A DNA stretch of 62,720 nt, counting the filler, from Hausera hauseri (taxonomy: Eukaryota): the NCBI GenBank assembly GCA_046269625.1. It is 10 parts of 10 records of this genome, joined end to end, with 100 filler letters (N's around TTAATTAATTAA, not from the genome) between each part and the next. Parts side by side here need not be neighbours in the genome. Positions count along the whole stretch, not along the records: positions 35,410 to 46,977 come from JBJURY010088876.1; 9 more parts are not named here. The stretch is one strand, 5' to 3'. A program made the position numbers and the translations under genes. This document shows, in pieces, positions 26,580 to 47,077 of this stretch (position 1 is its first letter; each line of letters starts with the position of its first letter). The notes beneath the pieces were generated by a model, which was given only the letters and a program-made list of their open reading frames with translations, ran no database searches and was not told the origin of the DNA.

Positions 26580-26679
26580 CTGAAAAATAAATAAAGATTA
26601 ATCCTAAGACAGATCATCGTTTTGAAACAAAACATTTTCTCTGTCTGATGATAGGATAACCATATCTGTAGTTGTCAGG

Positions 26680-27936
26680 TTATGCTATCATAAGGTCCGT
26701 CTCGGTACCTGTTATCCGTTTATCTCCCTCTCGATTTTTACAGCGTTTATTACAATTTTTGGAAACTAGAAAAGTCATCGCTGTTGTTATAACAAGAACG
26801 AAAATTGACAAACTAAATATAGCTATTATCGGTAAATTACTCGGCTCAGTAGAACTTTTCGTGGTAAATACATTTTGAGTGCTGATATCTTTATGTGGAA
26901 TTACCTCAACTTTATTGCCAAGAGTTCGTACTGTAAAAGTTTTAGGATCCTTACCTCTCGCAGTAATTCGAATTATATAGTCATGTTGCGGCCGTAAAGA
27001 TTTACATTCAGCTTTTTAACTATTTTTTTTCAGGAATACAACTTGGTTGGTGTGTAAAGTACGACATTCGATTTTGACGTCTCGATTAAGCGTCTCTTCC
27101 GCGTAAAATACGATTTTATCGCTCTTTGCCAAAATCCTGACTGGCGTGTTTCCTGACATTTCATCCGAAGTGACGATCGTAGTAGGGAGAATCGTACTTG
27201 AGATTGAAGGTGGTTTACTTGTAGTAGTTGGGAAGGGAAGCTCCCATATTCCAATTTTCGGGCAATATCCACGCAAATAAGTGCTTGGCTCTCCGGGGAA
27301 CGTATTGTACAAATCGAATTGCAACTGATATTTTTGTCCTAATTGTATCACACAGCACACAGTCGATCGGCATCTTGCCAAAAAACAATATTCCGGAGCA
27401 GGAGTCGAAACAGATAATGGTATAAATCTCTTAGTTTCAATCCGTATGCATTGATTCTTCAAGTCCTTGTAAATTCCCATAATGTTATTATCTAAGAGCC
27501 TTTTAAACGGGTCAATGCATCGGATTATTTCGTCCGTCTTGGCTTGATTTGCATCCTTTTGTTGGGGCATTCTTATTACGAGTCCCGAAAGTATATAAGC
27601 TTGAGCTCCATACTGATTATAATAAAACATTTGGAATCTGTATGCGTAGAATTTCCCGAAATCTAAATCACAACATCTTTTGGAATGTCCGTACGGAAAA
27701 TCACACGTGTTTTTGTTTACGAATATTATTTGAAATTTCATCAAACTTGAAATGGGTTCACTTGCTTTAAACCATGCACAGGGTTTGGTCCAATCCATAT
27801 CGAGTACTCTAAGTGACTGTAAGTTCTGGATATCCTTCCTATGTTTGCTCCGAGCGATCGATTTCGTAGTTGGTATATATGAAGCGATTAACGTTAAGGC
27901 CAGGATTATTTGCGCATACGATATTGGTCTGGTCAC
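26680..27936 (-). CDS. Type I membrane protein (signal peptide, three Cys-containing FN3-like repeats, TM); one frameshift in an A-run at about 27025
   Basis: Signal IILALTLIASYIPTTKS. Repeats CCDLDFGKFYAYRF, CCVIQLGQKYQLQF and CKSLRPQHDYIIRI. TM LPIIAIFSLSIFVLVITTAMTFLV. In frame with integrase behind a single TAA. Confidence 0.65.
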
Positions 27937-27948
27937 TATTGGCGATGT

Positions 27949-29862
27949 TTACTTTTCTTTATTAACTTTATTTGAACGCAAATTATAGCGTTTATCCGGC
28001 CATATTACCGTCTTTACTACTCTCTGAATCGATACAACCTCTTCCTTGCCGTTTTTGTTCATATAAACTGTGGTCGGTGTAACTTTAGTGACTTCATACG
28101 GTCCTCTACTGGTTCTAGTGAGTTTAAGAGTTGTGCCTTTCTTCGCCACCGGGTAGTATACGTAAACCCAGTTTCCGGGTTCTAGATCATGTGGTTTAGC
28201 CTTCTTATCATACTGTTTCTTAAATTGTTCCTGGTATTCTTTAGATAACTCTTTAGCTATTTCCCAACACCGGTGTAATCTTGATTGTAATACCTCGATA
28301 AAATTCTGCTCTAAATCTTCCGTTTTAGTTCTATATGGAATCAATCCTAAATCGGTAGGCAGTACAGCTTCTCTACCGTACATCATATAAAATGGAGTGA
28401 ATCCTGTCGCAGAATATGGAGTAGTATTGATGGCGAACTGTATGTCTTCTAAGAACTCGTCCCAATCTTTCTTATCCTTCGCAACTACTGTCGATAAGAT
28501 TTGTATAACGGTCGCGTTCATTCTCTCGACCATTCCATTACATTGGGGGTGGTAAGCTGTAGTAGTTAATCTTTCGAACTCAAAAATCTTGGTAATTTTC
28601 TCGAACAGTTCACTCGTAAAATTCCTTCCTCGGTCTGTCAGTATTTGTTCGGGTGGTCCGTATCTGCAAATGATCTTTCGGACTACCGCTTCTGCTAAGG
28701 TCTTGGCCTTTTGGTCTAATAGCGCTATAAGTTCGACGAAATGGGTCAATCGACCTACACACGTCAGAATGTATTTGTTATTTTTGTGGGTTGTAGGCAA
28801 GGGTCCTACAATATCCATATACATTGCTTGCATTGGTCTATCCGGCACATCAATAGGCTTGAGCTCAGCAACGTAATTCTTTACTTTTCTTTGCTTGGTT
28901 GCACATACTTCGCAAGCATTTACCCAGTTTTTCACGTCGTTATAGATACTTGGCCAATAGTACTTTTTTAAAATTCTTTTTAATATCTTTTTCCATGACA
29001 TGTGTCCAGCCAAATAAGAATCATGTTCGGCCATGAGAACTTCCGTTCGTAGTCCTTTCGGTAAAAAACTAGTTTCCGTCCCTTTCGTTCGTAATGTAAC
29101 ACATTTTTGCAGTTCAAATCTCCAACGACGTAGTATTTGTGACCATATCGTCGTAAATGTTTCCGTAACTGATGACCTTTGGGTGTTACGTTGGTCTCTA
29201 TGAACTCGATAATCTGTTGTATAACCCGGTCTTTTCTTTGCTTAACAGCAATTTTAGTGCCTTATCCAATGTGAGAATCCGTTGTCTCTCTACTACGTCT
29301 TTAAGGTGAGCTTTTCTCATTACCGTAACTGCGCTTGTTTTCGTTTTAAGTCTCGATAATGCATCAGCGTCGACATGCCTACTTCCGGGCTTATATTTGA
29401 ACTCGATATTATATCGCGATATCTACTCAATCCATCTGTTGAGTCTACAAGTTGGATTATTCGCTCTACCTTTCAAAGTCGTAACTGCCTTATAATCCGT
29501 AACGATTATGATATTTTGTCCGTAGACATATACATTGAAATGCCGTAGTGCTTCTTTTACCGCCAATGTTTCTAGTTTTGTAACAGAATAGTTCTTTTCT
29601 GCTTTCTTCAGAGAACGTCCCACGTATGCAATCGGGTGTTCCAACTCTTCGTCTTCTCGTTTTTGAGCCAGCTCATATCCGATACCTTCCTTACTGGCGT
29701 CTGTTTTCATTATGAACGGCAGGTTGAAATCGGGATATCTTAAAACAGGTTCGCTCGTTAGAATTTTCTTCATTTCATCAAAGGCCTTTTGTTCAACATC
29801 GGTCCATTTCCATTTAATCCCTTTCTTTAATAAACGATACAAGGGTGCATTTATCTTTGCGT
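27949..29862 (-). pseudogene. pol: Ty3/gypsy pol 3' part (RNase H, integrase with GPY motif)
   Basis: KTDASKEGIG and KLETLAV. HHCC zinc finger HDSYLAGH...CEVC. Core motifs MDIVGP, LTDRGRNF and GMVERMN, then RGPY. The RNase H is a close paralog of 1-482. Confidence 0.97.
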
Positions 29863-29962: not shown

Positions 29963-30410
29963 AACAATACATAACTTTATTGATATTCATTATGTAAGAA
30001 CTAAAAATGAGGTACTTAAAGACAAAGAGAAGTTTGTCGTAACTCACATATCGAATTTTCGAGAAGTCAAACAACCTTTGGATGTTATTGTTATTTTTGA
30101 TGGAATTTGTAAAAAATTACCTCATAAAAAGATGGAGCTTTGGCTAGTAGGAGAGGGACCTCTACTTTTGGATGTTCAAGAGGAAGTTCGTTTAAGGGGA
30201 ATAGAAGATAGAGTAAAATTTTTTGGTACACGCTTGGATGTGTTTTGTTTTTTAAAGCAAAGTGATCTCTTTTTGCTTACGAGTAAAGGAGAGTCTTTTG
30301 GTTTGGTCCTTTTGGAGGCAATGAGTTCTGGGGTTCCTTGCCTTTCTTCAAACTTGGGTGGTGTCCCTGAAGTTATAGAAGATGGCATCAACGGGTATTT
30401 ATATGAAGAC
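29963..30410 (+). CDS. Bacterial GT4 glycosyltransferase, BshA-like, C-terminal half (partial)
   Basis: HNFID, THISNFREVK, LVGEGP and SDLFLLTSKGESFGLVLLEAMSSGVPCLSSNLGGVPEVIEDGINGYL. Confidence 0.88.
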
Positions 30411-30863
30411 AAAAATTTTGAAGAGGCTGTTGCGAAAGCGAAAAACATCGAAAATGCATTCAGGGACCAAAGCTACCAAGCAAACAATTACTCAGCTGAA
30501 ATTAACACAATCATGCATTCGCAAATTGAGGGAAATAAAAAATTAATGGAACTCACTAAAAAATTAAATGAAATGGAAGAGACTAAAACTTTAAATAATT
30601 TAGAAGTGAGACAAAATAGTGAAAATCAAAGAGAAAAATTATGTTGTTTAATTTGTGGTAAAAACCATCTAACATTAAATTGTTGGCACTACCCAAATGT
30701 AAGAAACCATCAGCAAAATAATTTCAATCAAAGATACAGCCAAAACTATAATAGAAATAATACAGGAAGGAATAATAGAAACTTCAGACAAGGCAGATAC
30801 CACAGGAAACCAAGAGGAGGTAACTTCAGGCAGCACCCTTACTCAAATCAAAATTTAAACTAG
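30411..30863 (+). CDS. gag: Gypsy gag C-terminus (zinc knuckle, N/R-rich tail)
   Basis: FEEAVAKAKNIE capsid-end helix and CLICGKNHLTLNC knuckle, directly upstream of pol. Confidence 0.8.
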   Translation, partial: KNFEEAVAKAKNIENAFRDQSYQANNYSAEINTIMHSQIEGNKKLMELTKKLNEMEETKTLNNLEVRQNSENQREKLCCLICGKNHLTLNCWHYPNVRNHQQNNFNQRYSQNYNRNNTGRNNRNFRQGRYHRKPRGGNFRQHPYSNQNLN

Positions 30864-30914
30864 GTGGGGGTCCTTGTAACTTTTATAGGTACAATTCCCA
30901 CCAGACAAGGACCC
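30854..30914 (+). promoter_or_regulatory. -1 programmed ribosomal frameshift signal (gag-pol)
   Basis: Slippery T_TTA_AAC in the gag frame immediately before TAG, a 7-nt spacer, then a perfect 10-bp stem GGGTCCTTGT (30868-77) / ACAAGGACCC (30905-14). The -1 frame is open into pol. Confidence 0.85.
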
Positions 30915-33900
30915 ATTATTATCATAAAAGTAGGAATAGTCAAAATTATGATTATTATAAAGAAAATTACAATTACAGAAAAAATCAGCAAAATAGTTAT
31001 CATAATAGGAATAAAAATTGGTACAGAAATAAAAATAGAAACTGGAATAACTATCAAAATAAAAATTGGAAAAACTATTCAAATCACCAAAATAAAATTC
31101 AAAAGCATAAGAAAATAAGTCAAAATTCAGATTTTAAAAATTTAAAAAGAAACCAAAATAAAATTGAAGATAAAACAATTCAAAATTCTAAAGCTAATGA
31201 AGAAATGCTGGTAGTAATGTCTTGTAATGAGAATAAAAATCATTTACCCATTATACGCTTTAAGTTTGGAGATATAATCGTTGACGCGTTGCTTGACACA
31301 GGAGCTAATTTGAGTTTGGTACAACCTAGCGTTATTGAGCAGATAAAATCAACCACTAAGGTAGATTACATCTCACGCGCAGTTAGGATTCACACCTTAA
31401 ACTCTTCAACGATACCATACTTGTCTCCTGTTAATACAAAATTTAAAATCAAAAATAAATGGTTTGAAAATCAATTTTTCGTAACACAGACAGATTGGCA
31501 ATCCAAATACAGGATAATTTTAGGGTATGATTTTCTCCAGCGAAACAAAATAATCATTGACACACCGAACAAATGCCTGATAATGGACAATAATAAATTT
31601 GAATTTGAAGAAGCTGCTCCTGAAAAGATATCCAATAATATGACAAAAAATTTAAAATCGACAGAACAGGTTAAGTCGACAGAGAATGTAAAATCATTAG
31701 AAAATTTAAAATCTAAAGATAAGAAAAAGAAAAAAAAGTCAACAGTAATAGCAAAATGTGTAAATCATATTGTTTTAGAACCTAATTCATCCAAAGTGAT
31801 ACAATTGAAAATTCCTGAGGAAAATAAGAACTTTACTCAAATTATGTTTACCCCTATTGTAAATAAACCAGGACTAATAATAAATGAATCTGTACATATA
31901 TTAAATGAAAATGAAAAATTTTATACTATAATTGAAAATGAATCACAGGAAATAATAAATATAAGGAAAGAGACTAACTTAGGAAAAATTGAGGTATTTG
32001 AGAATAGTAGCAAAATTGCTCCTTCTAAACAAGAGGTTTTGCAAATTAACAATTTAAATTTAGAAGAAGTTATAAAATTAAGAAAGGAAGAAGTGCAAGA
32101 GTCAGATTTTAAATTAGACCATCTGCCAGAAAATGAAAAAAAAGAAATCTTAGATTTGTTAATGAAAAATTACAGGGTATTCTCAAAATCTTACCTTACG
32201 CTTGGCTCGACTGATGCTGTAGTACCTGAGATAAAATTGTTACATAATTTTCCAATTCAAACTAAATCTTATCAAATACCTAAAATAGCAAAAGAATTTG
32301 CAAAAAAAGAAATAGCACAACTTTTAGAAGCAGGAATAATTGAACCATCAACATCAACGTATAACTTTCCAGTAATCTTCGTCAAAAAGAAACCACTTCC
32401 AGGTGCAGATCCAAAAAATTTAAAATTCAGAATGGTCATAGATTACAGATTACTTAACAGCATTACAGAGTCATTCAAAATTTGTCTTCCAAAAATATCA
32501 GAAATTCTTCACAACATTTCAGGAAAAAAACTATACTGTGTTTTGGATCTTAAATCCGCATTTTTCCAAATTAGACTTCAGGACTGTGACAAGCATAAGT
32601 TTGCATTCTGTTGTGAGCAGGGAAACTACCATCCCACGAGATTATTTTTTGGGGCGAAGAATTCAACCTCATTCTTCCATACATTAATAGCTAAGTGTAT
32701 TAATGATATAAAGGGACCCAACATTCAGTATTTTGTCGACGACATCATAATAGCAGCAAACTCCACAGAGGAGATGAAAATCTGGTTGCAGAAAGTATTC
32801 GACAGGTTAGCAAACTTCAATTTAACTTTAGACCCTCAAAAACTCCAAATTTGTCAGAAAAATATCACATATCTTGGCTTCCAAATTAACGAGAATGGTT
32901 TTTCACCCTCAGAGGATAACATTCACAAAGTTTTAAAATTTCCAGTACCAAAAAATATTAAACAGGTCCAGATGTTCATTGGTATGCTAAATTATTTCAG
33001 ACACCTTATACATGATTATGCAAAAATTTTAAATCCCATTGTAAACTTAACAAGAAAAAATGTACCATTTGTATGGAGTGATGCTTGTCAAAATTCTTTT
33101 GAAAAATTGCAAGATATAATTTTAACCCAGCCAACAGTAAAAAACATTGATGAAAATAAACCCTTGTATTTAGTATGTGATGCATCCCACATCTCTATCT
33201 CTGGAATTTTAATGCAGAAGGAGAATGAACAATTCTACCCCGTACAGTTTTTTTCGAAGCAATTAACACCCGCTGAGAGCAAATATCCTTCAATTAGAAG
33301 AGAGTTTTATGCCATCTTTGCATCATGCAAACATTTCTACGAACAGCTGTATGGGAAAAAATTTACAATTCTCACTGATGCCAAACCATTAACTCACCAC
33401 ATGCATTTAGAAAAACAGCCGGATATCGTAGCTAGGTGGTTGTTGTACTTGCAACAATTTGATTTTGTGATGGAACACATCCCTGGTTTTTCGAACCCGT
33501 CTGATTTTCTGAGTCGCATGGAGCCAGTACCATTGAATGTCAACAACTTAAATTTATTTTCGACTGCAGGCAATCTCAGTCAGGAAAACATAAAAAATCA
33601 ACAAGAAAATGATCAAAAAATTTGTGAAATCATAAACAAAATCAAGAATAATGATAAAAAAGTCAAAAGACAATTTAATATTGATACAGAAACAAAATTA
33701 TTAATGAAAAAGAGAAAACCAAGTAAGAAAAATAAGGCAAAGGGTAAAAGCATTGAATTTAGAATTGTAATGCCACAAAATTTAATTAAAGAGTGTATAG
33801 AAACAGCTCACATACCCCATTTTGGCACTGAAAAAACATATAACTATATCAAAACAAAATATTTTTGGAAAGGAATGTTTTTGGACATCAAAAATTTTTG

Positions 33901-34825
33901 TGAAAATTGTACAAAATGTTTGGAGTATAAATCTAAATCAAAGAACACTTTACCTCAGCAAATTTCAAAAAAGCATTTAGCACCAGGAGAGCAAATTGCA
34001 ATTGATGCAGTAGGAAAATTACCTCGATCATATGATGGGAAATTCTTTATACTCACAATAGTCGATCACTACTCCAGGCACCTAGAAGCTTTTCCAGTTC
34101 CAAATATAACCTCAACCACAGTCATAAAATGTTTAAATGAGTACATAGCAAGATTTGGCATTCCCAAAATTTTAATATCTGATAACGGTTCAAATTTTAC
34201 ATCTGATGATTTTGAAAACTTCTTAAAAAATTTAAATATTCAGCATAATAGAACAGCTGTCTATCACCCAGTTTCGAACGGCTTATTGGAGCGGATTCAT
34301 AGGACGATGAAAGCCAGCATATCAGCAATCTCAGACAAAATTTTTGAGTGGCCCAGTGCTCTTTTAACCTTTAAACTACACTATAACAATTCCAAACACA
34401 TTGTCACAGGATATTCACCAGCAGAGATATTTTTTGGTAGGTCATTAAATTTACCACTACAGGCAAAAGACCAGTTAAAACATGTAGAACACTTTGATGA
34501 ATACAAAAAACAATTGGCAGAAATTTCAAAAGAACAAAGAGAATCAATTGCAAATAATGAGGAGGAATATTTTGAAGCACAATCACATCAATTAAGAGGT
34601 AGAAAAATTAAAGCATTAGAAGTTGGAGATCAGGTTTTTATTAGAAAGTTTACCAACACAGGCACTTTTCAAAAAAAATTCGAAGGTCCTTGGGAAGTAG
34701 CAAGATGTTTTCGAAATGATAACTATCTATTGCAAAAAACAGAGGATAATGAATTAAGAACAAAAAAATTACATGTGAGTGACATATTTATCCAAAAACC
34801 ATTGAGACCAAACATTATAGAATAA
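30854..34825 (+). CDS. pol: Intact Ty3/gypsy Pol (PR-RT-RH-IN)
   Basis: LLDTGA, RMVIDYRLLN, LDLKSAFFQ, YFVDD, VCDAS, HHCC finger, AIDAVG/SDNG/LLER and EGPW. No stops from the slippery site to 34825. Confidence 0.97.
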   Translation, partial: FKLGGGPCNFYRYNSHQTRTHYYHKSRNSQNYDYYKENYNYRKNQQNSYHNRNKNWYRNKNRNWNNYQNKNWKNYSNHQNKIQKHKKISQNSDFKNLKRNQNKIEDKTIQNSKANEEMLVVMSCNENKNHLPIIRFKFGDIIVDALLDTGANLSLVQPSVIEQIKSTTKVDYISRAVRIHTLNSSTIPYLSPVNTKFKIKNKWFENQFFVTQTDWQSKYRIILGYDFLQRNKIIIDTPNKCLIMDNNKFEFEEAAPEKISNNMTKNLKSTEQVKSTENVKSLENLKSKDKKKKKKSTVIAKCVNHIVLEPNSSKVIQLKIPEENKNFTQIMFTPIVNKPGLIINESVHILNENEKFYTIIENESQEIINIRKETNLGKIEVFENSSKIAPSKQEVLQINNLNLEEVIKLRKEEVQESDFKLDHLPENEKKEILDLLMKNYRVFSKSYLTLGSTDAVVPEIKLLHNFPIQTKSYQIPKIAKEFAKKEIAQLLEAGIIEPSTSTYNFPVIFVKKKPLPGADPKNLKFRMVIDYRLLNSITESFKICLPKISEILHNISGKKLYCVLDLKSAFFQIRLQDCDKHKFAFCCEQGNYHPTRLFFGAKNSTSFFHTLIAKCINDIKGPNIQYFVDDIIIAANSTEEMKIWLQKVFDRLANFNLTLDPQKLQICQKNITYLGFQINENGFSPSEDNIHKVLKFPVPKNIKQVQMFIGMLNYFRHLIHDYAKILNPIVNLTRKNVPFVWSDACQNSFEKLQDIILTQPTVKNIDENKPLYLVCDASHISISGILMQKENEQFYPVQFFSKQLTPAESKYPSIRREFYAIFASCKHFYEQLYGKKFTILTDAKPLTHHMHLEKQPDIVARWLLYLQQFDFVMEHIPGFSNPSDFLSRMEPVPLNVNNLNLFSTAGNLSQENIKNQQENDQKICEIINKIKNNDKKVKRQFNIDTETKLLMKKRKPSKKNKAKGKSIEFRIVMPQNLIKECIETAHIPHFGTEKTYNYIKTKYFWKGMFLDIKNFCENCTKCLEYKSKSKNTLPQQISKKHLAPGEQIAIDAVGKLPRSYDGKFFILTIVDHYSRHLEAFPVPNITSTTVIKCLNEYIARFGIPKILISDNGSNFTSDDFENFLKNLNIQHNRTAVYHPVSNGLLERIHRTMKASISAISDKIFEWPSALLTFKLHYNNSKHIVTGYSPAEIFFGRSLNLPLQAKDQLKHVEHFDEYKKQLAEISKEQRESIANNEEEYFEAQSHQLRGRKIKALEVGDQVFIRKFTNTGTFQKKFEGPWEVARCFRNDNYLLQKTEDNELRTKKLHVSDIFIQKPLRPNIIE

Positions 34826-35309: not shown

Positions 35310-35409
35310 NNNNNNNNNNNNNNNNNNNNNNNNNNNNNNNNNNNNNNNNNNNNTTAATTAATTAANNNNNNNNNNNNNNNNNNNNNNNNNNNNNNNNNNN
35401 NNNNNNNNN
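35310..35409. other. Artificial contig linker
   Basis: N44-TTAATTAATTAA-N44. Confidence 0.99.
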
Positions 35410-35759
35410 AATTAGGTCCAGTTCGATGTGATCAGTGTCAAGAGTATACGCCGTGGAAGTCAGTGATTATAAATGAAAACGAACAAGTGTTATGCCCCAT
35501 TTGCACGTTGACAGAAGAAGATTTGAAAGAAATCGAAGCATCAGTGAAGCAACAGTAGAACGGACGATGTTATGATGAGTTGTAATAAAAGTTTTATAGA
35601 CGTTGTTTAAAGGTGATATTAAGGGAAATATTGTAATCGTTAAGAAAAGCCAAAGGCTGGACGTGGAGGAATATTGAGCAATATATCCAACCCAAATATA
35701 GATAGTAAAATAGCATATTGAAATATTGTATTATTTTGGAATTGAATTTAATATTTTGA

Positions 35760-36173
35760 ATAGAAAACTGCCCCATATGCTTGGATGAATTAGCCGAGGA
35801 AAGAGCAATACTGCCTTGCAATCATAAATATTGTTGTTCCTGCATAAATACGTGGCTGTCAGAACAAAACAACTGCCCATGTTGTCGAAGGTTGTGCGTC
35901 TTTTGTTGGGTGTGCTTTAGAATAACAATGGAGGAAGTGGTTATATTATCATGTCAACATGCCTTTTGTCAGAAGTGTATCATGGAGCATCTGGGATTCT
36001 ACAGGCTATGTCCATCTTGCTTTGAAGAAGTGGAGTTTTATACTACAGGGGAAACAGTGGTTTACTTGAACATTGATAACAGAATCTCAACAACTCTAGT
36101 AGTAGATGAGGATGATGACGAATGGCCAGAAGCATGGAGGAATCCCCAATCGTTTGCGATCGATGACATTTGA
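35760..36173 (+). CDS. Tandem double C3HC4 RING-finger protein
   Basis: CPICL...PCNHKYCCSC...W...CPCC followed by CWVC...SCQHAFCQKC...CPSC. No in-frame ATG before the first RING. Confidence 0.85.
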   Translation: MENCPICLDELAEERAILPCNHKYCCSCINTWLSEQNNCPCCRRLCVFCWVCFRITMEEVVILSCQHAFCQKCIMEHLGFYRLCPSCFEEVEFYTTGETVVYLNIDNRISTTLVVDEDDDEWPEAWRNPQSFAIDDI

Positions 36174-36240
36174 ATATTGTTTTAGAATTAATTATTATTA
36201 AAACTTGTTGAGTGTATTGTTATAATATTAATATAATTAA

Positions 36241-36534
36241 GGTTATCAGTACAGAGAAAACACTATATACAACGGGCTACAATTCACCAAAGGGATATCA
36301 GAAACATATACTACTTATAACCCAAAAGGAGTTTTTTCACCAATAGGACCAGCGTGTGCTATATGCTTGAATCAATATTCAACGGATCCAGCAGAACTGA
36401 TTATTTGCAAACATATATTTTGTCGTACTTGTATAAGAGAATGGTATCACACATCTGATACTTGTCCATTATGCCGTATTAACAACAAATTATTTCGTGT
36501 CGGTCATAAATATTATACCATAAAGAATTTATGA
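36241..36534 (+). CDS. Small C3HC4 RING-finger protein (not in the ORF track; no ATG)
   Basis: CAICLNQY...ICKHIFCRTCIREW...CPLCR, with AATAAA overlapping the stop. Confidence 0.85.
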   Translation, partial: GYQYRENTIYNGLQFTKGISETYTTYNPKGVFSPIGPACAICLNQYSTDPAELIICKHIFCRTCIREWYHTSDTCPLCRINNKLFRVGHKYYTIKNL

Positions 36535-36611
36535 ATAAATATATCTGATTCTATTTTTGATAATTACTCGAATTTGATGGTGATTAATTCAGCTAACGTC
36601 AAAAAAAACGG

Positions 36612-37775
36612 ATGATTAAGAGAATGAGATTTGAAATAAATGGCCAAGATGAAGAGATAGAAGAAACGCAAGTTAATTTGGTCAAATATCTAAAACATTA
36701 TCGCAATAGACAGCTTGGTCCAGCTTTATTTATTAAGAGATTAGTGAGATATGATAATACGAAGTCGGTGGATGATACGATGAAAATTACTCAAAATAGA
36801 AAAATATCATTCTTAGAAAATCCCAATTTACCAGTCCCAGGAGAGTTGGCTTGTTCTTATGCTGAAGCCGGATTATTTAGAACTCCAGCGGGTCAAATCA
36901 AATGCATATATTGCCAAGGAGAATTTCAGTATGAAAAAACGAAGAACCAGCCAAACAAAACCCATAAGAAACTATATCCTACATGCCCTTACTTATTAAA
37001 TGTTGATGTTAGTAACATACCATTAGTAGATGTTTTTACTAAGAAAGCTGATACAGACCTGAGTATTACGCATAATGTTACAGTGATAGCACGGATACAT
37101 TACGAAACAGATAACGCGATATGAACTTAATTTTAAACACCCGCCAAGCAAGAAAGCTAACCTTTAAGGAAAATAAAGATAACAAACATTTGGCGAATCA
37201 AGGATTAGTATTAATACTTAAAGAAGGAGCGCAATATGTGAAATGTACGGTATGATTTAGAGAAACATGTTTATTAGAGAACATTGACCAGAGATGCCCG
37301 AGTATACTGCATAATTCTAAGTGTATGTATTCGATATATAGAACCACAGAGTCACAGAGTAAAAAGCAATGCAGAATTCAGTCTGACATGGAGGAATTTT
37401 GTGAAATGTATCAGGAGAGCACAATAACAGTATCAATAATATCCCGCCATCCAGAGAAGCGAGAGAATATATTGCAGTATATTAAATGTCGAGTGGAACG
37501 ACAACCGGAGTGGTCATTAAACGCATTCGAACTACTTCAAAATTTGGATTTCGTACTTCCATACGAGGCGAATGAAATAGAGAAGGATGATCTTAATGAA
37601 CTTTATTTGCGAGAGTTTGGATGTGTAATCTGCTATGTGAATTCGGCGCAAGTTATTCTTTTACCCTGTGGTCATATGAAAGTATGCGAAAATGTGTGAC
37701 CCAGACAAAGAACTGTCCAGTGTGTAGGAGTCGAATTGAAAGAAAGATAACCTGTTTTCAGTTCCCAGAGATATG
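36612..37775 (+). pseudogene. Inhibitor of apoptosis (BIR-BIR-RING), frameshifted
   Basis: BIR1 RKISF...AEAGLF...KCIYC...H...PTCPY, a degenerate BIR2 RKLTF...LANQGL...VKC, and an IAP-type RING CVICY...LLPCGHMKVC...CPVCRSRI. Confidence 0.85.
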
Positions 37776-37835
37776 AAATGATAACGTTATAATTGATTGA
37801 ACATCTATTGTGTACGAATAAATATATTTTAATGC

Positions 37836-38384
37836 ATGATTACTCATATTGTTAGATTAAATAAATCATTTATAGGAATAACAAACATCAAAGATGTGAC
37901 TCTGACGAATCTTAATGAATGGATAGATCAATTACTAATGATAAAAATACAACCTCCCAAGATAGCTTATGAATGGTACAAACTGTATAACAACAAACTA
38001 ATTGAGAAGATAGCAGAATTGGGATATAATAAGTATTTGGCAATGATTGCTGTCAAAACTAACAAGGATATTCAATATGAAACATCACCAACTATAATGG
38101 TCAACATATACCAATTACAACTAATGGACAACGAGTATTACCAAAAAATTCAACACTTGCAATCGCCACTAAAGGAAAAAGAACAAGAGGTTGAAGAAAG
38201 ATGTACGGAAATCAGCCGCACCGTTTGGATTTGTTTGATTTGTAAAAAGAATCAATCAAATATACTTTATTTGCCCTATGGACATATTATTCATTGCAAA
38301 ACATGCGTTACCGGACATTCCACCTTGTCTCAGTATACTATATGTGAATTGTTTATAGAAGAAACTTGTACTGTTTATGTATAA
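37836..38384 (+). CDS. IAP-like C-terminal module (UBA-like plus degenerate RING)
   Basis: IAELGYNKYLAMIAV (UBA-like) and CLICK...ILYLPYGHIIHCKTC...TIC ending in VYV*, like IAP C-termini. Confidence 0.7.
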   Translation: MITHIVRLNKSFIGITNIKDVTLTNLNEWIDQLLMIKIQPPKIAYEWYKLYNNKLIEKIAELGYNKYLAMIAVKTNKDIQYETSPTIMVNIYQLQLMDNEYYQKIQHLQSPLKEKEQEVEERCTEISRTVWICLICKKNQSNILYLPYGHIIHCKTCVTGHSTLSQYTICELFIEETCTVYV

Positions 38385-41300
38385 TAAGAGAGTTTTTTTT
38401 AAAATATAACAATGGCGCAAAGACATACACACGATACCGATTTCAAAGACGATTAGCGCAAAATACGTCAACAGCACTCAACGAAGATAATGAACAGGAG
38501 GAGAATGTTAGTTCTACTAGTGGTTCGGAAGTAATAAGTACAGCGTCAGCTCCAGAATCTATAATAGACTTAGATTCAGTACAATTATCTCCAACTTTAG
38601 TACAACATAATTGGACAAGAGAAATTAATGGAAGAAGGAGACCATTTCGAGGACGATACCGTAATACCCCAGACCCACGACAGTTAATACAAAGAGTACT
38701 CAATCAAGAATTAGAATGTCGTACACGATATGAAGCACACCAAGTAAATGTAGATGAACTACGAGTGAGGCAAAATAGAACAGAGGGTAATATCCGACAA
38801 TTGCTACAGGAAATACAAAATTTACCTCGACAAAGAGATGATAGCACTATAGAAGACAGTATTTTAAATCCTGATTTGAGGTTAGATAGAATCGAAGAAA
38901 GAGCCGTAGTGTTAGAACAAAAAATAAACGATAATAATATAAATTTAAATGAAATTAAAGAAAAAACTGATCAATTAACACAGGATGTGGGTATTCATAC
39001 CAGACAAATACATGATATACGACTCCAAGCTTACGACCACACGATAGCAATACGTCAAAACAAAGAACAAATAGTAAACAACGATGGACAAGTAACCCAA
39101 GGATTAAATAAGATACAAAACCAATTGACGGTCATTGTAGACGAACAAGAACAGATTCAAGAGAATCATAATTTCGTTAGAAATCATATTGATCATCTAA
39201 CACAGGAAATAACTGAATTAAATGAACACGTTGAGCAGATACAAACGAGAGATATAGTAAATCAAATCAACGAACGACTAAACGTGGTACAATCCCCAGA
39301 ATTTTCAATAGAATTGAGTGAGATATCTTGTGAAACTACTGATAACGATGACAACATGGCTCGACACGGGAATAATCAAGATCGGTTCGCTCAGGATGAA
39401 GAGCGTAACTGCGACCAAAATAACAATGCCGGTTACGGATTATGGAATTTTAGGAGGGAGAAGAAGTATCAAATGCTTCCTCGCCTTCAACCATACGAAG
39501 GACGAGTATCAGATTTAGAGGATTTCTTGGACGAATATGATTCATTGGCAACAGCCATGCATTGGGATGATGCGAAAAAAATATCTATGTTGCCAGTACA
39601 TGTAAACAATGACTTGAGGATAGCAATAACACGAATACCTCCACAAAGAGGGGAAACTTGGGTACAGCACCGAGAAAAAATATTACGGAATCAACAGGTT
39701 GATATACAAGAAAATAGATATCTAAAATTCCAAAATTGTAAACAAAAACCAAATGAAGAGGTATTAACATATATTAATAGATTTAAAACAGCAATGAATA
39801 GGTATTTTGGTGATAACGCACGAGCATTTGGTGCTATGATTATGAAACAATTTGTACTTGGACTCTCACCACCTCTACGAGAAGGAGTCAAATTTCATAC
39901 AGCAGATAATATTAATGACTTAATTGATTATACCCGTCGAATGGCTACTCGAATAGATGAAACACCGGTATGGAATAATCAAACACATATCGCAGCAGTA
40001 GCCACCGCTCCATTATTAGTGAGACCAGACGTACCAAATCGGAGTAATTCACCATGGAGAGATTTACCTAGAAGTCAGAGCCCTAGCGGACAAAGTAATA
40101 ATACATCACAGAGGAGTAACACTCCGGAAAGAAGAAATAATAATCAACCTTCTAGAGACTTCAACAATAATCAAAGGGATACACCATATCAAAATCAAAG
40201 AAACGAAAGATATAATGATAACCGACAACGGAATGAAACAAGATATGAAAGATCACGCGATTACTCAAGAGATAGAAATGATAATAGAAGTCGATTTCCT
40301 AGTAGAGATAGGTACAGTAATGATCGAAATTTCGATCGATACAACAATAGAAATAATCAAGTAAATTCACACTACAGACGCGATGATAGCCGAACCCGCT
40401 ATTCAACTAATAGATCAGATGGACCAAGATTTAATTATTCTAACGATAGAAGGAATGATAGTCGCGATAGATCCAGAAGAGATGACAGTCGGGAACGATA
40501 TAATAACTTTAATAGAAATAATAGTGGAGAAAGAGATAACCGGCGAAGTAACAGCAGAGACAGATATAATTCTGGAAATAATAATAGAGACCGGTATAAT
40601 GATCCAAGATACAGGAATTATGATGGAAGACGAGACTATACTCCACCCCGACGAGAATCAGATAGATACAATAGGAATCCTAGTCCATATCCCCAAAGAG
40701 ATCGAAATCGATCTCCCTCTCCAATACCAACCCATAATAATAACGAAAGATACACTAGACCGACAGACTATATTCTCAGACAAAACGATATTAGTAGAAA
40801 TCCTTCACCATTTCGATATGATAGGAATACGACACCGGAACGGCCCAGATACTCAAATGAGAAAAGACCAGATTCAATGACATCACCAAATAATAATCTC
40901 ACTAAGGAAAAAGGAAGCTCTTCCGATAATGGAAGGAGTAGTAGCGACGAAAGGAGTCTATCACCTCGGCATTCAGTTACGTTTAATGAACAAACCAAAT
41001 CCGCTTTTACAGGATTATTAATAGCGAAACCTATACAAGACGACCAGCAAAGTATACTTAAATCATCATCAAATATTTCTATCTTAGAAAAACCTTTTGT
41101 AACAAGAAATCGCTTAGAACAAGCAGGACAAAAAGTGCCAGATATTCAGCATAATACACTTCCCTATATGCTATGGCCAGAAACCAGAGAAATAAAAGAC
41201 TTACTCTTAACGTTTGTAGCGGTAGAGAAGATTATCGAGAATAATCACGAACCAGAAATCGACCGAATAAGAATAGAGAATAATGAAGGTAATATAATAC

Positions 41301-44300
41301 TGGAGCTAGAAAAAGTACGCTCAGAAAAAGAGAAATACTTTGAAAATCTTAGGCAATTACTCTGTGGAAGAATTGTTGTCGGAATCGATTTACCATGGTT
41401 ATTTAGACAAATACAGCTGAAAGAAACGGATATTTTTGGCACGTTTAACGTGGATCAGAATTTCAATTTACCAAATGATCAATGGAAAAGAGATGGAACA
41501 TTACCACAACGGTTGATTAACTTACGACGAGAATACAAGATAAAACTTAGTCGTCAAGGATCTCCATATTATATCTTCCCAAGTAGACCATTGTTTAAAG
41601 ATAATAAACAACCTATGCAGGAAGTGACATGCAATACCACGCTGATTGCAGAAGTAGCGTTACGACACATGGATATGGAAATAACACGAAGTTGGGATAG
41701 GATATTTGATGATAAGAAAACCAATCGAATAGAGTTTGCAGAAATTGCTAATCAAGGATCAATTTGTATGGAAAGTATTGATAAAGTTTATTTAAAGAAT
41801 ACTGATATTCAAATCAAAAGAGATGACCCACCATGTGCAGTAATCACTGATCAAGGAGAAGTACGGCTACAGATTAATAATAAAGCGGTAATTATCTCCA
41901 AAGAGACTATGATAATTCCCAACTATCCTTATGAAGGAAATTGTCGGATTCAACCATTAGATGACAATCCCTTATATTTAATACAATTACCTAAGAAAAC
42001 ACCCATACTATCCATGGACGAACCTGTAAAACAGGATAAGGAAATAATACTTACAGGTAGATGTATAAACAATGGAGATCAGAAAGGACTTACTCAAATC
42101 ACCGCCAAAAATTTAGAAGGGGAAACAATTTTCAATATTCACATATATTCGAACATACCAGACCCTACGAAGTACACTGAGTATAGTAGACGAGTCAATC
42201 CTCAACGACAAGAAGCAGTGAGTAAGTTTATGAATAAATATTTACCAGGAAAAATAATCATTGAACGACAACTACCAGAACTATTAAATACATTGAAAAT
42301 TAATCCAAAAAATTTAACTGCTGTCTATGATTTAGAACAAACCAACAGAAATTATAGATGTCTAGACTTGTACCATGGTCATAACTCAGAAATAATGGCA
42401 CAAAGATGTTTATATGAGTACTTAAAGACGACACGAGTGGAATACAATCTGCCATGGATAATAGAGAGTCAGAAAACATTACAAATAGCCTTTCCGTTAA
42501 TTCGACAACTTGAGAAAACAAATGAAGCACGAGCCATTCCAGTAATCGAACCAATTGCTCAAAGATGCCCCGATATGGACTCGGACGAATATTCGCAGGA
42601 GCCCGTCAGAACTCGACTAACTGGAGAATGGATAGAACCTCACAATGATAGATTGGTTGCACCTCTAACTCAGCCAAATATTCCACCCCAACGACCTACA
42701 TCATTCGAAGCAATATGGGATTTGGCGCAACCCAGTACATCCAAGAAAGAATCACGATTAGTTGATACAGATGACACATTTGCAATTTTAGATGACGACG
42801 AATTTCTTCCTATGCACGATGCGAACGAATATCCAGAAGATCCGTTTTTATCAGTCGAAAATCCAAAATATACACCAGAAATAAATGTACCTCCAGGTTC
42901 AATAATATATGATGAACCTACAAAGCTAATAATTGAAATACTCAAAGCGAAACTACAAATGACAGATACACCACCGAATGAAGTGTGGAATGCTCTACGA
43001 CAATATGAATCGTTATCACTGACTCATCGAATAGAATGCGCGCCACTACTTATACCGTTGACGAAGGATGATGTATATTGTTTCCTAGCAGCAAGAAAAT
43101 TGCTTAAGACTCTTGGTAGAGATTTAAGAAGAAAACATAGAAGAAAACAGCCATATATAATAAGCATAGAAATTAAAACTAATAAACGGGAGCAGGAAAT
43201 TGAAGTAACGGCTGGAATGTTTACTAAATTCATTGATCTCCGAAGAAAAGTATTGGACGAGTTAGATTTGGAAACCAATATAATAGCAAAAACTGATGTC
43301 TATGGTAGAATAGCCGCTGATAATGATTACATAGTGGATTACGGACTACTTACCGGAAAAATCTACCAGATTATCATGGAATTTGGTACTAAGAAAAAGG
43401 GAGGAAGACCACGAAAGTGCGATTTTAACCCCATAAGTGATGATGAAGAAAATCCTGAGGAAGAAAGACCGGAGAAACAAAAAAGAAAAAAGCCATTATC
43501 AAGAAAACGTAAGGAACAACGAGAAGCATTAGAAGACATACTATATGACAATTTTCAGCAAATTACTATTAGCGATGATGAAAATGAACAAATGAAGGAA
43601 CCAGCTGCAGGAACATCAAATCAACAGGAAATGAATATCCCAAATGTAACATTGACAACCCAAGAACTTATAGAACAATTAATTAAGAAAGTTAACCCGA
43701 ACCAGCTCAAGAAGATACCAGCCATTACAACAATTCCATTACAGTCCATAATAGAAACGGCTAGAAACTTCTCATCACAAATTACAAAGTTACTACAGAA
43801 GTACAAATTAAAAGGAGGTCTGAATAAGACATTAACACGGTTATTAAAGGAATGCGATCAAAACCGACTGCTTATGGCTTTAGGATGTATAGTAGTTAGT
43901 TTTAAAAATCAAACTGAGATTGATGCTAAACTGCACCATACAGTGAGAGACTTAGCCCACCACATGGATAAATTAACGAAGGAATGGGTAACTAAACAAG
44001 GAGGATGGGACGAAATCCTTAAGAAATTTAACCCTTTGTATAATTCAATACAAGTAAACGACAAGTATGTCACATTCAAATTTCATAACCAATACTATAT
44101 GGTCACATTTGATGATAACGCCGTCAAATGTTTTCGAATAATGAAAGAATCCATTAAATGTGATGATCTTCAACCACAACATTCGTATCGAATACAAATA
44201 GTATATTATACACCTCAACTACCCTTCAGGCCAAAGACAGTAGCAATATGCCATATAACCACCTTAGAAGAACGGAACCCTACAAAAATCGAATCACTGA

Positions 44301-45376
44301 AACTTAAGACGAACATAAATCACAAATCATTAATGTTAATAATCATCATACCTTCTATTATCGTCGTGGTCGCCGTAATATCCCTATTGATTTTGCGCAT
44401 CAAAAATCATCATCATATTGAGAGGTATACAGCTCTACATAGAACAAGACCGAAAATTAATTTAAGATTTCCTCGAACGTTATTACTTTTGAGTATGCTG
44501 ATTTGTTGTATGCCAAACTCATTGGCGCAGACCACTTCAAATTCTCAGAAAACAATAACAAATTTACTCAGTCAGGTAACACCAAGTACATTTACAGAAT
44601 TCATGAAATTTTTAAAGAAAAATACCCAAACAGAACCATGGGACATCGAAGAGGTTTCACCAGGAAATCTTTATATACAATATAATCACACAAGACGATG
44701 TTTATCTATGAAATCTTCTTATCCACAAAATAGAATGAAAGATAATAAGACTTCACCTGAAGAATGGGGAACGGTAGTTCTTTACAAACGATCCAAGGAA
44801 ATATGCACTACTACGTCAGTAGATGGGGGTCATTGTTGTACAGTCACTCCAGGAGACACTTATTTAATACAAATACACATAGCGAAGAGAAAAGATTTAC
44901 CTCTTATAGAAAATCGAAAAGCCATAATAGTCATACCAACGAGACAAAAAATCGCTACAATATCCCTAACTTATAATTCAGAGAAGCAAAAGGAGTTAAC
45001 TAATATCGATAAAATATTTTTAGAGAAAAGAATATCGATCAGGCAACCCGACTATGCAAAACAATGTTTGCCAGTAGAATGGGACCGTAAAATACCCAAA
45101 GGGAGAGTAATGCAAATAATCACTCAATATGCCGATACTTCTATTCCTGATGATAAAGTATACTACTCCAGAGAACATAATTTCTCTACATGTATCTCCG
45201 CAAGACCTGATCAAGAATATTCGTTAACATTCACGATGTTCCGTATAATAAAAGGCATATGGAGGAACACAACAAAAAGAGTCGACAGAACAGTACCAAT
45301 AATCCCGTGTACCCCTCTATCGAAGGAAATAAACGCACTGTTGCCAAAATATTCTGTGAAAACGCTACTACCTTAA
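38366..45376 (+). CDS. gag: Gag mega-polyprotein with cargo domains (coiled coil, capsid, R/S/N/D-rich region, two pseudo-exonucleases, Ubl, AT-hook, Bcl-2-like, FN3-like, TM)
   Basis: 2336-aa open frame. Capsid LQPYEG...WDD...CKQKPNEEVLTYINRF...FVLGL at about 39480-39960. BH2-like WVTKQGGWDEILKKF at about 43985. TM at about 44325-44395. The true start codon is uncertain. Confidence 0.85.
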   Translation: MYCLCIIREFFLKYNNGAKTYTRYRFQRRLAQNTSTALNEDNEQEENVSSTSGSEVISTASAPESIIDLDSVQLSPTLVQHNWTREINGRRRPFRGRYRNTPDPRQLIQRVLNQELECRTRYEAHQVNVDELRVRQNRTEGNIRQLLQEIQNLPRQRDDSTIEDSILNPDLRLDRIEERAVVLEQKINDNNINLNEIKEKTDQLTQDVGIHTRQIHDIRLQAYDHTIAIRQNKEQIVNNDGQVTQGLNKIQNQLTVIVDEQEQIQENHNFVRNHIDHLTQEITELNEHVEQIQTRDIVNQINERLNVVQSPEFSIELSEISCETTDNDDNMARHGNNQDRFAQDEERNCDQNNNAGYGLWNFRREKKYQMLPRLQPYEGRVSDLEDFLDEYDSLATAMHWDDAKKISMLPVHVNNDLRIAITRIPPQRGETWVQHREKILRNQQVDIQENRYLKFQNCKQKPNEEVLTYINRFKTAMNRYFGDNARAFGAMIMKQFVLGLSPPLREGVKFHTADNINDLIDYTRRMATRIDETPVWNNQTHIAAVATAPLLVRPDVPNRSNSPWRDLPRSQSPSGQSNNTSQRSNTPERRNNNQPSRDFNNNQRDTPYQNQRNERYNDNRQRNETRYERSRDYSRDRNDNRSRFPSRDRYSNDRNFDRYNNRNNQVNSHYRRDDSRTRYSTNRSDGPRFNYSNDRRNDSRDRSRRDDSRERYNNFNRNNSGERDNRRSNSRDRYNSGNNNRDRYNDPRYRNYDGRRDYTPPRRESDRYNRNPSPYPQRDRNRSPSPIPTHNNNERYTRPTDYILRQNDISRNPSPFRYDRNTTPERPRYSNEKRPDSMTSPNNNLTKEKGSSSDNGRSSSDERSLSPRHSVTFNEQTKSAFTGLLIAKPIQDDQQSILKSSSNISILEKPFVTRNRLEQAGQKVPDIQHNTLPYMLWPETREIKDLLLTFVAVEKIIENNHEPEIDRIRIENNEGNIILELEKVRSEKEKYFENLRQLLCGRIVVGIDLPWLFRQIQLKETDIFGTFNVDQNFNLPNDQWKRDGTLPQRLINLRREYKIKLSRQGSPYYIFPSRPLFKDNKQPMQEVTCNTTLIAEVALRHMDMEITRSWDRIFDDKKTNRIEFAEIANQGSICMESIDKVYLKNTDIQIKRDDPPCAVITDQGEVRLQINNKAVIISKETMIIPNYPYEGNCRIQPLDDNPLYLIQLPKKTPILSMDEPVKQDKEIILTGRCINNGDQKGLTQITAKNLEGETIFNIHIYSNIPDPTKYTEYSRRVNPQRQEAVSKFMNKYLPGKIIIERQLPELLNTLKINPKNLTAVYDLEQTNRNYRCLDLYHGHNSEIMAQRCLYEYLKTTRVEYNLPWIIESQKTLQIAFPLIRQLEKTNEARAIPVIEPIAQRCPDMDSDEYSQEPVRTRLTGEWIEPHNDRLVAPLTQPNIPPQRPTSFEAIWDLAQPSTSKKESRLVDTDDTFAILDDDEFLPMHDANEYPEDPFLSVENPKYTPEINVPPGSIIYDEPTKLIIEILKAKLQMTDTPPNEVWNALRQYESLSLTHRIECAPLLIPLTKDDVYCFLAARKLLKTLGRDLRRKHRRKQPYIISIEIKTNKREQEIEVTAGMFTKFIDLRRKVLDELDLETNIIAKTDVYGRIAADNDYIVDYGLLTGKIYQIIMEFGTKKKGGRPRKCDFNPISDDEENPEEERPEKQKRKKPLSRKRKEQREALEDILYDNFQQITISDDENEQMKEPAAGTSNQQEMNIPNVTLTTQELIEQLIKKVNPNQLKKIPAITTIPLQSIIETARNFSSQITKLLQKYKLKGGLNKTLTRLLKECDQNRLLMALGCIVVSFKNQTEIDAKLHHTVRDLAHHMDKLTKEWVTKQGGWDEILKKFNPLYNSIQVNDKYVTFKFHNQYYMVTFDDNAVKCFRIMKESIKCDDLQPQHSYRIQIVYYTPQLPFRPKTVAICHITTLEERNPTKIESLKLKTNINHKSLMLIIIIPSIIVVVAVISLLILRIKNHHHIERYTALHRTRPKINLRFPRTLLLLSMLICCMPNSLAQTTSNSQKTITNLLSQVTPSTFTEFMKFLKKNTQTEPWDIEEVSPGNLYIQYNHTRRCLSMKSSYPQNRMKDNKTSPEEWGTVVLYKRSKEICTTTSVDGGHCCTVTPGDTYLIQIHIAKRKDLPLIENRKAIIVIPTRQKIATISLTYNSEKQKELTNIDKIFLEKRISIRQPDYAKQCLPVEWDRKIPKGRVMQIITQYADTSIPDDKVYYSREHNFSTCISARPDQEYSLTFTMFRIIKGIWRNTTKRVDRTVPIIPCTPLSKEINALLPKYSVKTLLP

Positions 45377-46977
45377 TAGTGTCAACTCAAACCGATAGAA
45401 CAAATTATGTTATAACTTGTGCAGCAAGACGTTATGATGACGAAATATATATTATTGAGACTACCAATCCGCAACCTATAGTATCGTGCACGAGACACGA
45501 TAATCGAGAAATACTTCTAACATTGCAACTACAATCATCATGTCCAAATACCTTTTGGTTAAGTAGTTTTCAATACGCAGTACAGAATTACATCACGTAT
45601 ATGCCATTAAACCTAATGCAAGTGCCGGAACGGATAACTTCGTTCTTATTTAAACCCCTGGACGCTTACATTCAAGTAAGATCTGACCGTATTTTTATTA
45701 GTCTACCACATCCAGATTTTATAGTAAACATAGAGAATGCTAACGATGCCTGCTATTTACTTACTAGTACTTACGTCGAATGTCCACCACTAATATCCGG
45801 TTATCCTTATCTAGTCCACATTCAACGACCTCACTACAACCCAATACGAAGACACAAGACAATCGCACTTTTGCAGGTTACTACTCTTAAAAAAGGAGTA
45901 AATTCATTGTACAAATTCCCTACACTTGATGAAATAATGAAAGGAGGAAGATTTGTTTCTCGAAAAATCATCGACCCACAAGAAAACAAAAAGTTAGCTC
46001 ATAAATCACCACTTAGCGAGCATATGAAACAATTTCAGATAGATTACAATATGCTTATATTAATCGTAATAATTGTACCAATCAGTGTAGTACTTGTCGT
46101 AACTGTCATAATCCTAGTATGCATATATAGACGCAAATACAACCGAGTGAATGTGTCTCGTCATACAACCACCTTTGTTGATGAACCAATTGAAATCCCA
46201 CTAAATGATCTGGAATATGACTTCGAAATTTACGGTGATCAGAAATGGTTATCTGTTATCCGAAAGGAGGAATATTATCCATATGTAGAAAATAACGAAG
46301 AGCAGGCTCCATCACAAGCCGAACGCTATATGTTAGGATGTATTGACGAACCAACCAACCCAATAGAATATACAACAATAAATGATGCCGGAATAACTCC
46401 ATTAATGTTGGCGGTAGCAGCAGGAAATGAAGATAGAGCTAGAGAAGCTATAACCCAATTAGGCGACGAAGCCACACAAGCATTGAAGTTTCAGGATACA
46501 AATGGCAACACTATAATTCATCTGGCTATTATGAGCGAATGCCACGATTTCTTTATATTAATGCTGATTCAATCTCAAGCACCCTTACATATACCTAATG
46601 TGGACGGAGATATTCCTTTGCTGTTTGCTATACGACATGGTCGACATGACTTGGCAATTCCGATATTCGGTTATGCCTATGACAATAAGGCATTCCAGGC
46701 AATATTCCAAACCCAATTACGCAGTACACCGTTACATCATGCAATAGTTTTTAAACGATTCCTCTTGTTGGAAACCTTTCTAAATAAGAAGTTTGACAAT
46801 GGAACTTATGTATTCGACGTAAACTACGCTCACGGATCATACGAAGAGACTCCTCTTATAACTGCACTCTTGACACGAACCTATGGTGCAGTCTCTATCT
46901 TGATGCGACGACCGGATATTCGACCAGAAATTCATAATTACCGAGGCATGACTATTAACGACATTCTGATACGCGAT
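45310..46977 (+). CDS. Continuation of the polyprotein in the -1 frame: FN3-like repeats, TM helix, ankyrin repeats (runs off the contig)
   Basis: Overlaps the end of the 2336-aa ORF. ECPPLISGYPYLVHI, TM MLILIVIIVPISVVLVVTVIILVCIY, and ANK motifs GITPLMLAV, GNTIIHLAI, GDIPLLFAI, STPLHHAI and ETPLITAL. Confidence 0.85.
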
Positions 46978-47077
46978 NNNNNNNNNNNNNNNNNNNNNNN
47001 NNNNNNNNNNNNNNNNNNNNNTTAATTAATTAANNNNNNNNNNNNNNNNNNNNNNNNNNNNNNNNNNNNNNNNNNNN
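46978..47077. other. Artificial contig linker
   Basis: N44-TTAATTAATTAA-N44. Confidence 0.99.

Follow-up and report, generated by a model that had tools for sequence, protein, structure and literature searches.

The window analyzed here, a 62,720-nucleotide (nt) stretch of the Hausera hauseri assembly GCA_046269625.1, is a chain of 10 contigs (~4.5 to 11.6 kb each) separated by nine linkers of the form N44-TTAATTAATTAA-N44. Our subject is the 11.6-kb contig JBJURY010088876.1 (positions 35410 to 46977, flanked by linkers at 35310-35409 and 46978-47077), in which an array of small ubiquitin-ligase/apoptosis-inhibitor units, all on the same strand, stands directly before a gag gene. A preliminary inspection of the DNA alone (here termed the sequence-only reading) had described this array as five units; the common strand stood up to analysis, and the make-up of the units had to be corrected. 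Position 35410 is the first base of the contig, and, because the contig starts inside the cassette, the 5′ end of the array and any long terminal repeat (LTR) or leader exon lie beyond it. The retroelement fragment and its cassette units, A to E, are as follows:

35410..46977, + strand: giant Ty3/Gypsy-type retroelement fragment with both ends missing; one contig carrying gag, cargo, and polyprotein on one strand.
35412..35558, + strand: unit A, 3′ end of a zinc-ribbon-like open reading frame (ORF) recognized by its Cys positions (CxxC-x18-CxxC), cut by the contig start.
35760..36173, + strand: unit B, double C3HC4 RING, intact (Pfam zf-C3HC4_2, E 7e-17, two stretches).
36241..36534, + strand: unit C, single C3HC4 RING, intact (Pfam zf-RING_2, E 6e-12).
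36612..37124, + strand: unit D1, single-BIR gene with its own ATG (Pfam BIR PF00653, E 5.6e-7, above cut-off).
37121..37776, + strand: unit D2, degenerate BIR-like, helical, and inhibitor of apoptosis protein (IAP)-type RING gene, damaged.
37836..38384, + strand: unit E, helical region and IAP-type RING (PDB cIAP2/XIAP RING, E 0.002-0.004).

The C3HC4 ligand pattern matched twice in unit B and once in unit C, with all eight ligands present in each RING, so that the double and the single RING proposed at the outset were both borne out. The Cys-rich tail proposed for the start of the array is unit A (CxxC..CxxC), which matched Pfam zf-Sec23_Sec24 at E 1e-4, below that family's cut-off. Unit D1 retains intact zinc ligands (C/C/H/C in the spacing CX2CX16HX6C; C103, C106, H123, and C130), and its PDB matches were the BIRs of NAIP, DIAP1, XIAP, and cIAP. 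The proposal of one BIR-BIR-RING unit did not hold: there are two ORFs, the D2 ATG at 37121 overlapping the D1 stop (D1 ends at 37124), and D2 is broken. More specifically, the BIR-like part of D2 aligns to D1, lacks the His-bearing segment, carries an in-frame stop (37253-37255) inside its CxxC, and gave no Pfam or PDB BIR match even with the stop read through as X; a frameshift near 37690 cuts the D2 RING in two, and its eight C3HC4 ligands do not lie in one frame. A diverged homologue of D2 at 7754-8210 occurs without D1, which fits D2 being a unit of its own. Unit E, described earlier as UBA-like plus RING, does contain a RING (Pfam zf-C3HC4_3, E 7e-6, below cut-off), one that lacks two of its Cys ligands, and its helical region, which we take to resemble a UBA, had zero matches in Pfam or PDB. 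Judged from these lesions, D2 and E appear damaged and this copy partly decayed. We propose that IAP-derived BIR and RING modules were duplicated and then split into small genes.

Two side observations concern D2. The overlap of the D1 stop and the D2 ATG (37121-37124) is an arrangement as in termination-reinitiation, and it roughly coincides with the drop in depth between A-D1 and D2-E described below. The D2 homologue is an isolated, decayed sequence (7745-8220; 38-45% identity) amid transposase-like fragments, without D1 or gag.

The spacers are AT-rich, as first described (12-28% GC versus 31-41% in the units), and an AATAAA or ATTAAA hexamer follows four of the five unit ends within 41 nt: AATAAA at 35584 (A), ATTAAA at 36197 (B), AATAAA at 36534 (C), and AATAAA at 37817 (D2). 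These are the poly(A) signals that the sequence-only reading had seen after most stops. Shuffled spacers reached at least four of five with P about 0.012; hexamer density was 3.7/kb in the cassette versus 2.2/kb in the polyprotein region, and this background makes the signal modest. Between units, a stop and its poly(A) signal are followed, 37-178 nt further on, by an AG.

Two RING ORFs had been reported to lack an in-frame ATG, and this proved accurate: none lies ahead of RING1 in unit B, nor ahead of the RING in unit C, which has no in-frame ATG. From these absences we infer that expression of the ATG-less RINGs requires splicing. Unit B has a single candidate acceptor (AG 35762-35763, phase 1); unit C has two (AG 36240-36241, phase 1, and the better-looking AG 36248-36249, phase 0, which closes the ttatcag previously pointed out at 36243-36249); and unit E has a phase-1 AG among several candidates. 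Since B, C, and E each have a phase-1 AG, a common phase-1 cis-spliced leader could serve all three, and a flatworm leader ending in AUG would serve only C because the AUG end needs phase 0. A two-exon gene running from A to B was rejected, as unit A offers no convincing phase-1 donor.

Unit E stops 27 nt before the gag ATG at 38412, in agreement with the earlier figure of under 30 nt, and a gap of this size leaves no room for an LTR between cassette and gag. Of 36 matches to the gag core in a HMMER scan, the protein P0001 alone was close (73% identical in the core; the other 35 at 23-31%). Because P0001 begins at the Met equivalent to 38412, we take this ATG as the gag start. The giant polyprotein has an open frame of 2342 codons, and the gag frame is broken near 38436 in this copy. 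The parts of gag and polyprotein are as follows:

38412..41000, + strand: gag, with a coiled-coil N-terminus, a capsid core at about 39458-40027, and an RS/RD-rich tract (PF03732).
41150..42430, + strand: two weakly similar repeats (internal BLASTP, E 0.004).
43148..43375, + strand: probable ubiquitin-like domain (ubiquilin-2 UBL, full length, E 1.1).
43631..44044, + strand: probable divergent Bcl-2-like domain (BCL2A1 over the BH2 region, E 0.14).
44315..46977, + strand: transmembrane-anchored domains and C-terminal ankyrin repeats (Pfam Ank_2, E 6e-13).

The capsid core matched PF03732 (Retrotrans_gag) at E 1.9e-5 with 25.2 bits (cut-off, 24.1), and the RS/RD-rich tract occupies the place of CCHC knuckles. 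The ubiquitin-like and Bcl-2-like domains were looked for on the strength of sequence motifs, and their weak matches came in the expected order. The C-terminal part has hydrophobic segments at 44315 and 46033 and a frame change near 45311, and its ORF runs off the contig.

Other contigs in the window carry sibling elements, distant relatives in gene content and not in sequence. The contig at 1-4480 (minus strand) encodes an env (PF24664, E 1e-34) followed by protease, reverse transcriptase, and RNase H, with many stops and frameshifts. That at 20221-29862 carries RNase H, integrase, transmembrane ORFs, an ISG20-like exonuclease, and a RING, and that at 47078-52660 (minus strand) carries env, transmembrane ORFs, an ISG20-like exonuclease, and a terminal RING, without pol. 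The exonuclease domain of these elements matched ISG20L2 at E 4.7e-5; the two repeats at 41150-42430 are possibly inactive ISG20-like exonuclease folds, as a weak alignment to that domain may suggest (hhalign E 0.032, probability 1.6%). Within 23750-29862 (minus strand) lies an element related to that of 47078-52660, with its RING likewise terminal, a purine tract end and, by eye, a possible short LTR at about 23980-23750.

The stretch is also present as contigs in two runs, X1 and X2, of which X1 may be the source sample. Depth, taken here by matching at 80% identity and not equivalent to copy number, differed sharply along the element. In X1, it was 13,881-15,170 for the gag core, 278-616 for A-D1, and 36-69 for D2-E, relative to 19-41 for near-identical contigs. 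X2 gave the same pattern (227-419 for the gag core, 17-27 for A-D1, and 0.65-1.4 for D2-E). The gag core depth in X1, set against that of the near-identical contigs, marks a large repeat family; A-D1 is present in several copies, and very few copies of D2-E match at 80% identity. Equally low depth (80-160) was seen over parts of the polyprotein, so depth does not separate fast divergence from absence. Unit E and gag are linked by one X1 contig (37927-39498), and another extends from D1 as far as the spacer downstream of D2; no contig covers the whole cassette. A continuous BIR-BIR-RING gene was likewise rejected on X1 data, as the contig over 36729-37876 has a single gap, located elsewhere than at the D1/D2 junction. 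Near 37688, 38436, and 45311, the near-identical X1 contigs depart in length from this one, so the breaks at these three places may be specific to this copy or products of misassembly.

Among the 40 differences listed of a total of 1280, 15 fell in the cassette; eight of these were coding, and six of the eight were synonymous, with a non-ligand Cys accounting for one of the two non-synonymous changes. An indel in unit A was in frame, whereas three of four indels in the A-B spacer were not multiples of three. This synonymous excess and the contrast between unit and spacer indels point to selection on the cassette frames. Over the first codons of B, no difference to the multi-copy contig appeared among the same 40, so the missing ATG of unit B is probably not a private lesion.

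We read the array as the cargo cassette of a Burro-like element, Burro being a group of giant retroelements known from planarians, with leader-spliced expression and anti-death products, and we give this reading as a whole a probability of about 0.6. Its components differ in strength. The array is very probably captured cargo of a giant Ty3/Gypsy-type element that works like planarian Burro, in a partly decayed copy. The interpretation offered by the sequence-only reading, a virus-like RING/IAP cassette, is supported to the extent that the cassette belongs to the gag element, given that there is no LTR-sized gap, that the X1 contig bridges the two, and that the RING frames are conserved. It had also held that a failure of the array to co-occur with this gag in other copies would count against it; the RING frames are indeed retained in other copies, but gag is far more abundant than the cassette.

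Expression is the more tentative component. Beside the observed domains, linkage to gag, repeat status, and poly(A)-like signals, splicing with separate polyadenylation seems a reasonable inference. The element's own 5′ promoter would drive short subgenomic RNAs of the cassette, their start codon coming from a shared leader exon beyond the end of the contig. Cis-splicing would join this leader to one or another last exon that closes with a poly(A) signal of its own, and read-through RNA would yield Gag and the genome. Such cis-splicing is the best of several options, at somewhat less than even odds. As to function, BIR products might bind caspases or IAP antagonists, RING products might ubiquitylate host death or defence proteins, and the Bcl-2-like domain of the polyprotein might act alongside, so that cells expressing the element would be kept alive. 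This anti-apoptotic and ubiquitylating role would follow by analogy with IAP biology and with a report on Burro1 cited below.

Several results weigh against this reading. D2-E lie near single-copy depth, indicating that most gag copies are without them or carry versions less than 80% alike, and the D2 homologue on another contig has neither BIR1 nor gag in its 5 kb. The differences listed represent just 40 of 1280. CCHC knuckles (CX2CX4HX4C) were found neither in the long ORF of the element nor in P0001. The ubiquilin-2 UBL, although the sole PDB match at E ≤ 10 for 43148-43375, is not significant, nor is BCL2A1, the second of four matches for the helical 43631-44044; neither segment had a Pfam match. 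Two single-sequence folds were of low confidence (pLDDT, the predicted local distance difference test, 35 and 46) and uninformative, fold searches gave no match above background, and an atlas search with the Bcl-2-like domain gave no usable match. The focal contig contains no protease, reverse transcriptase, or env, nor any pol, LTR, or primer-binding site (PBS), and no leader exon or strong donor was found on it; the agreement of three acceptors (B, C, and E) in phase 1 is not significant. A search for a long direct repeat marking an LTR was also negative, as expected for a truncated contig.

The splicing evidence also bears on a different scheme, in which the cassette is operon-like: a precursor would be cut at each poly(A) site and trans-spliced to the host spliced leader (SL), whose terminal AUG would start the ATG-less RINGs. 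Flatworm SLs are described as ending in AUG and as able to initiate translation (PMC9851317), and the 37-178 nt between poly(A) signal and AG are within the flatworm operon range (Schistosoma mansoni median 99 bp, 300-bp threshold; PMC12582326). Unit C, with its better-looking acceptor at 36248-36249 in phase 0, suits an AUG-ended leader, but unit B does not: its sole usable AG is in phase 1, which would put the AUG out of frame with RING1, itself conserved in other copies. The SL trans-splicing suggested from the sequence alone, with a leader ending in AUG, fits C and not B. In addition, cutting at every site would destroy the genomic RNA unless it were partial. We consider this scheme unlikely. 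A broader version strikes us as less likely again, namely, that the element represents a separate lineage in which captured IAP parts have become a variable, operon-like battery of single-domain E3 and BIR genes before gag; internal poly(A) sites and the host SL would cut it into mRNAs, the SL would give a start codon to at least one ATG-less RING, and copies would exchange cassette modules (A-D1 against D2-E) in the way host-range genes are swapped among large DNA viruses.

Internal poly(A) sites would be less harmful if the cassette lay inside a very long LTR (U3/R/U5), like sag and nef in retroviruses, with expression from a 3′ LTR or from spacer promoters and with gag starting at the PBS. 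The gag start does overlap a motif, ...AACA-A-TGGCGC, which we take to resemble an LTR end followed by a PBS, and A-D1 are more abundant than D2-E. However, only about 7 bases are PBS-like, and the same bases encode the conserved N-terminus; LTR ends should equal gag in abundance, whereas the bin before gag had a depth of 142 against about 15,000. Moreover, the RING ORF of a sibling element precedes its short LTR-like end rather than lying within it, and internal promoters cannot provide the missing ATGs. An LTR location is, in our judgment, improbable. Least credible is that the units are no functional cargo but stem from a host IAP/RING cluster, or from decayed remains, that a chance event (deletion, recombination, or mis-assembly) fused to one gag copy, an idea that can appeal to the near single-copy depth of D2-E and the damage in both, to the D2 remnant found away from gag, to the mixture of organisms in the window and the presence there of one or more odd fusions (29963-30863, see below), and to X1 perhaps being the source sample, so that the bridging contig is not fully independent, but that has against it the intronless and tightly packed units, the multi-copy A-D1 with conserved frames, the functional theme shared by the polyprotein, and the two sibling elements that also bear a RING ORF.

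Under the preferred reading of a Burro-like cargo cassette, BIR and RING cargo of the type carried by Burro1, reported to shield stem cells and help regeneration, may expand into a modular multi-gene cassette. What remains a puzzle is that four poly(A) sites and ATG-less genes stand before gag in an element that needs full-length RNA. The surprise is limited, since a giant gypsy element with IAP, Bcl-2, and ankyrin cargo is already in print.

The remainder of the window is heterogeneous. The CpG observed/expected ratio was 0.95-1.12 in seven of the ten contigs (1.01 in the focal contig), that is, without CpG depletion; planarians are not known to have CpG methylation. Together with the env-before-pol order of the contig at 1-4480, this points indirectly to an animal host, probably a flatworm. 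The remaining three contigs may derive from other organisms. One of these contigs carries half of a bacterial-type GT4 glycosyltransferase (29963-30863; best NCBIfam model BshA, E 6.5e-44, below cut-off), which runs in frame into a gag-like C-terminus before a complete gypsy pol (30824-34825). The fusion may be an assembly chimera or a real capture, and a CpG ratio of 0.46 suggests that this contig is from another organism. Pairing this pol with the focal gag was ruled out, as it lies on a separate contig with a ratio of 0.46 versus 1.01. A further gag (17064-20120; PF03732, E 3e-5) has a long low-complexity extension. A possible Polinton-like element at 52761-57942 comprises a dUTPase and the decayed remains of a type-B DNA polymerase (PF03175, below cut-off). 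A fragment of a rhodopsin-class G protein-coupled receptor (59913-60197), presumably resembling gastropod chemoreceptors, lies on a contig with a CpG ratio of 0.70 and a microsatellite.

Broader searches returned little. There were zero Rfam matches in the focal contig and no tRNA in the window, PHROGs gave nothing useful, and none of ten window proteins was present in an exact-match protein collection. A word-based protein search, at its threshold and within a limited length range, returned no relatives of D1 or of the sibling env, nor, among shorter proteins, of polyprotein residues 900-2312. Scans of viral, metagenome, and genome contigs for the locus found no relative.

The layout resembles that of known Burro-type giant retroelements, a parallel overlooked by the sequence-only reading. 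Burro elements are giant gypsy-like LTR elements, over 30 kb in total, that encode gag, a SUMO-like domain, BCL2, env before pol, BIR, and ankyrin, as well as RING cargo, with an accessory ORF upstream in one species (PMC6431247). Compared with the planarian set (Burro1/GYPSM1, Burro2-4, and the D. tigrina element), the element described here likewise opens its giant polyprotein with a Retrotrans_gag motif, carries ankyrins as cargo together with BIR and RING-type modules, has accessory ORFs upstream of gag, and is present in high copy; it may also share the order gag, ubiquitin-like, Bcl-2-like, on weak matches (E 1.1 and 0.14), and the sibling contig at 1-4480 has a mononegavirus-type env ahead of pol. 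In contrast, two or three CCHC knuckles follow gag in Burro, where this element has its RS/RD-rich tract, and no Pfam match on this contig, which is without both ends, corresponds to the MATH domain that Burro carries within its polyprotein or in an ORF ahead of it. In Burro, env lies in frame between BCL2 and protease, followed by dUTPase, reverse transcriptase, RNase H, and integrase; here, the 2.9 kb that follow the Bcl-2-like part contain no env, and transmembrane domains and ankyrins stand there instead of env, protease, and reverse transcriptase within the 11.6 kb. Unlike in Burro, the cargo is divided among six small units that have poly(A) signals of their own. Because knuckles are absent and pol and LTRs are off the contig, we do not class the element as a Burro; it appears to work like one, a likeness judged from published descriptions.

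The closest functional parallel is B-IAP of Burro1, also BIR and RING cargo on a retrotransposon and presumed anti-apoptotic. As related second-hand from Lee et al. 2026 (PMC13465017), this RING and BIR region protects stem cells from apoptosis; the description is of a single region that combines a RING with a BIR, whereas we found at least five RINGs and two BIR-type modules on separate ORFs, two of them damaged. Errantiviruses of GAG-ENV-POL order, reported from Platyhelminthes, Nematoda, and Bryozoa (PMC13524379), share env before pol with the sibling contig at 1-4480, the focal contig being without either, and the main text of that report never mentions Burro, apoptosis, RING, or accessory. 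The bdelloid LTR elements Juno and Vesta carry a captured exonuclease and transmembrane ORFs, as seen here, but their extra ORF is an ORF3 behind pol, and the available text is without RING, BIR, or ankyrin (PMC5408684). Cellular and baculoviral IAPs share the BIR C/C/H/C ligands of D1, and the best matches to the RINGs in D2 and E are those of cIAP/XIAP; unlike in those proteins, BIR and RING are on separate ORFs, and D2 and E are without some ligands. In the titles and abstract openings of the literature searched, we found no description of a multi-gene RING/IAP cassette before gag. The theme of a giant gypsy element with IAP, Bcl-2, and ankyrin cargo is already published, and what is new is a cassette that is split into multiple units.

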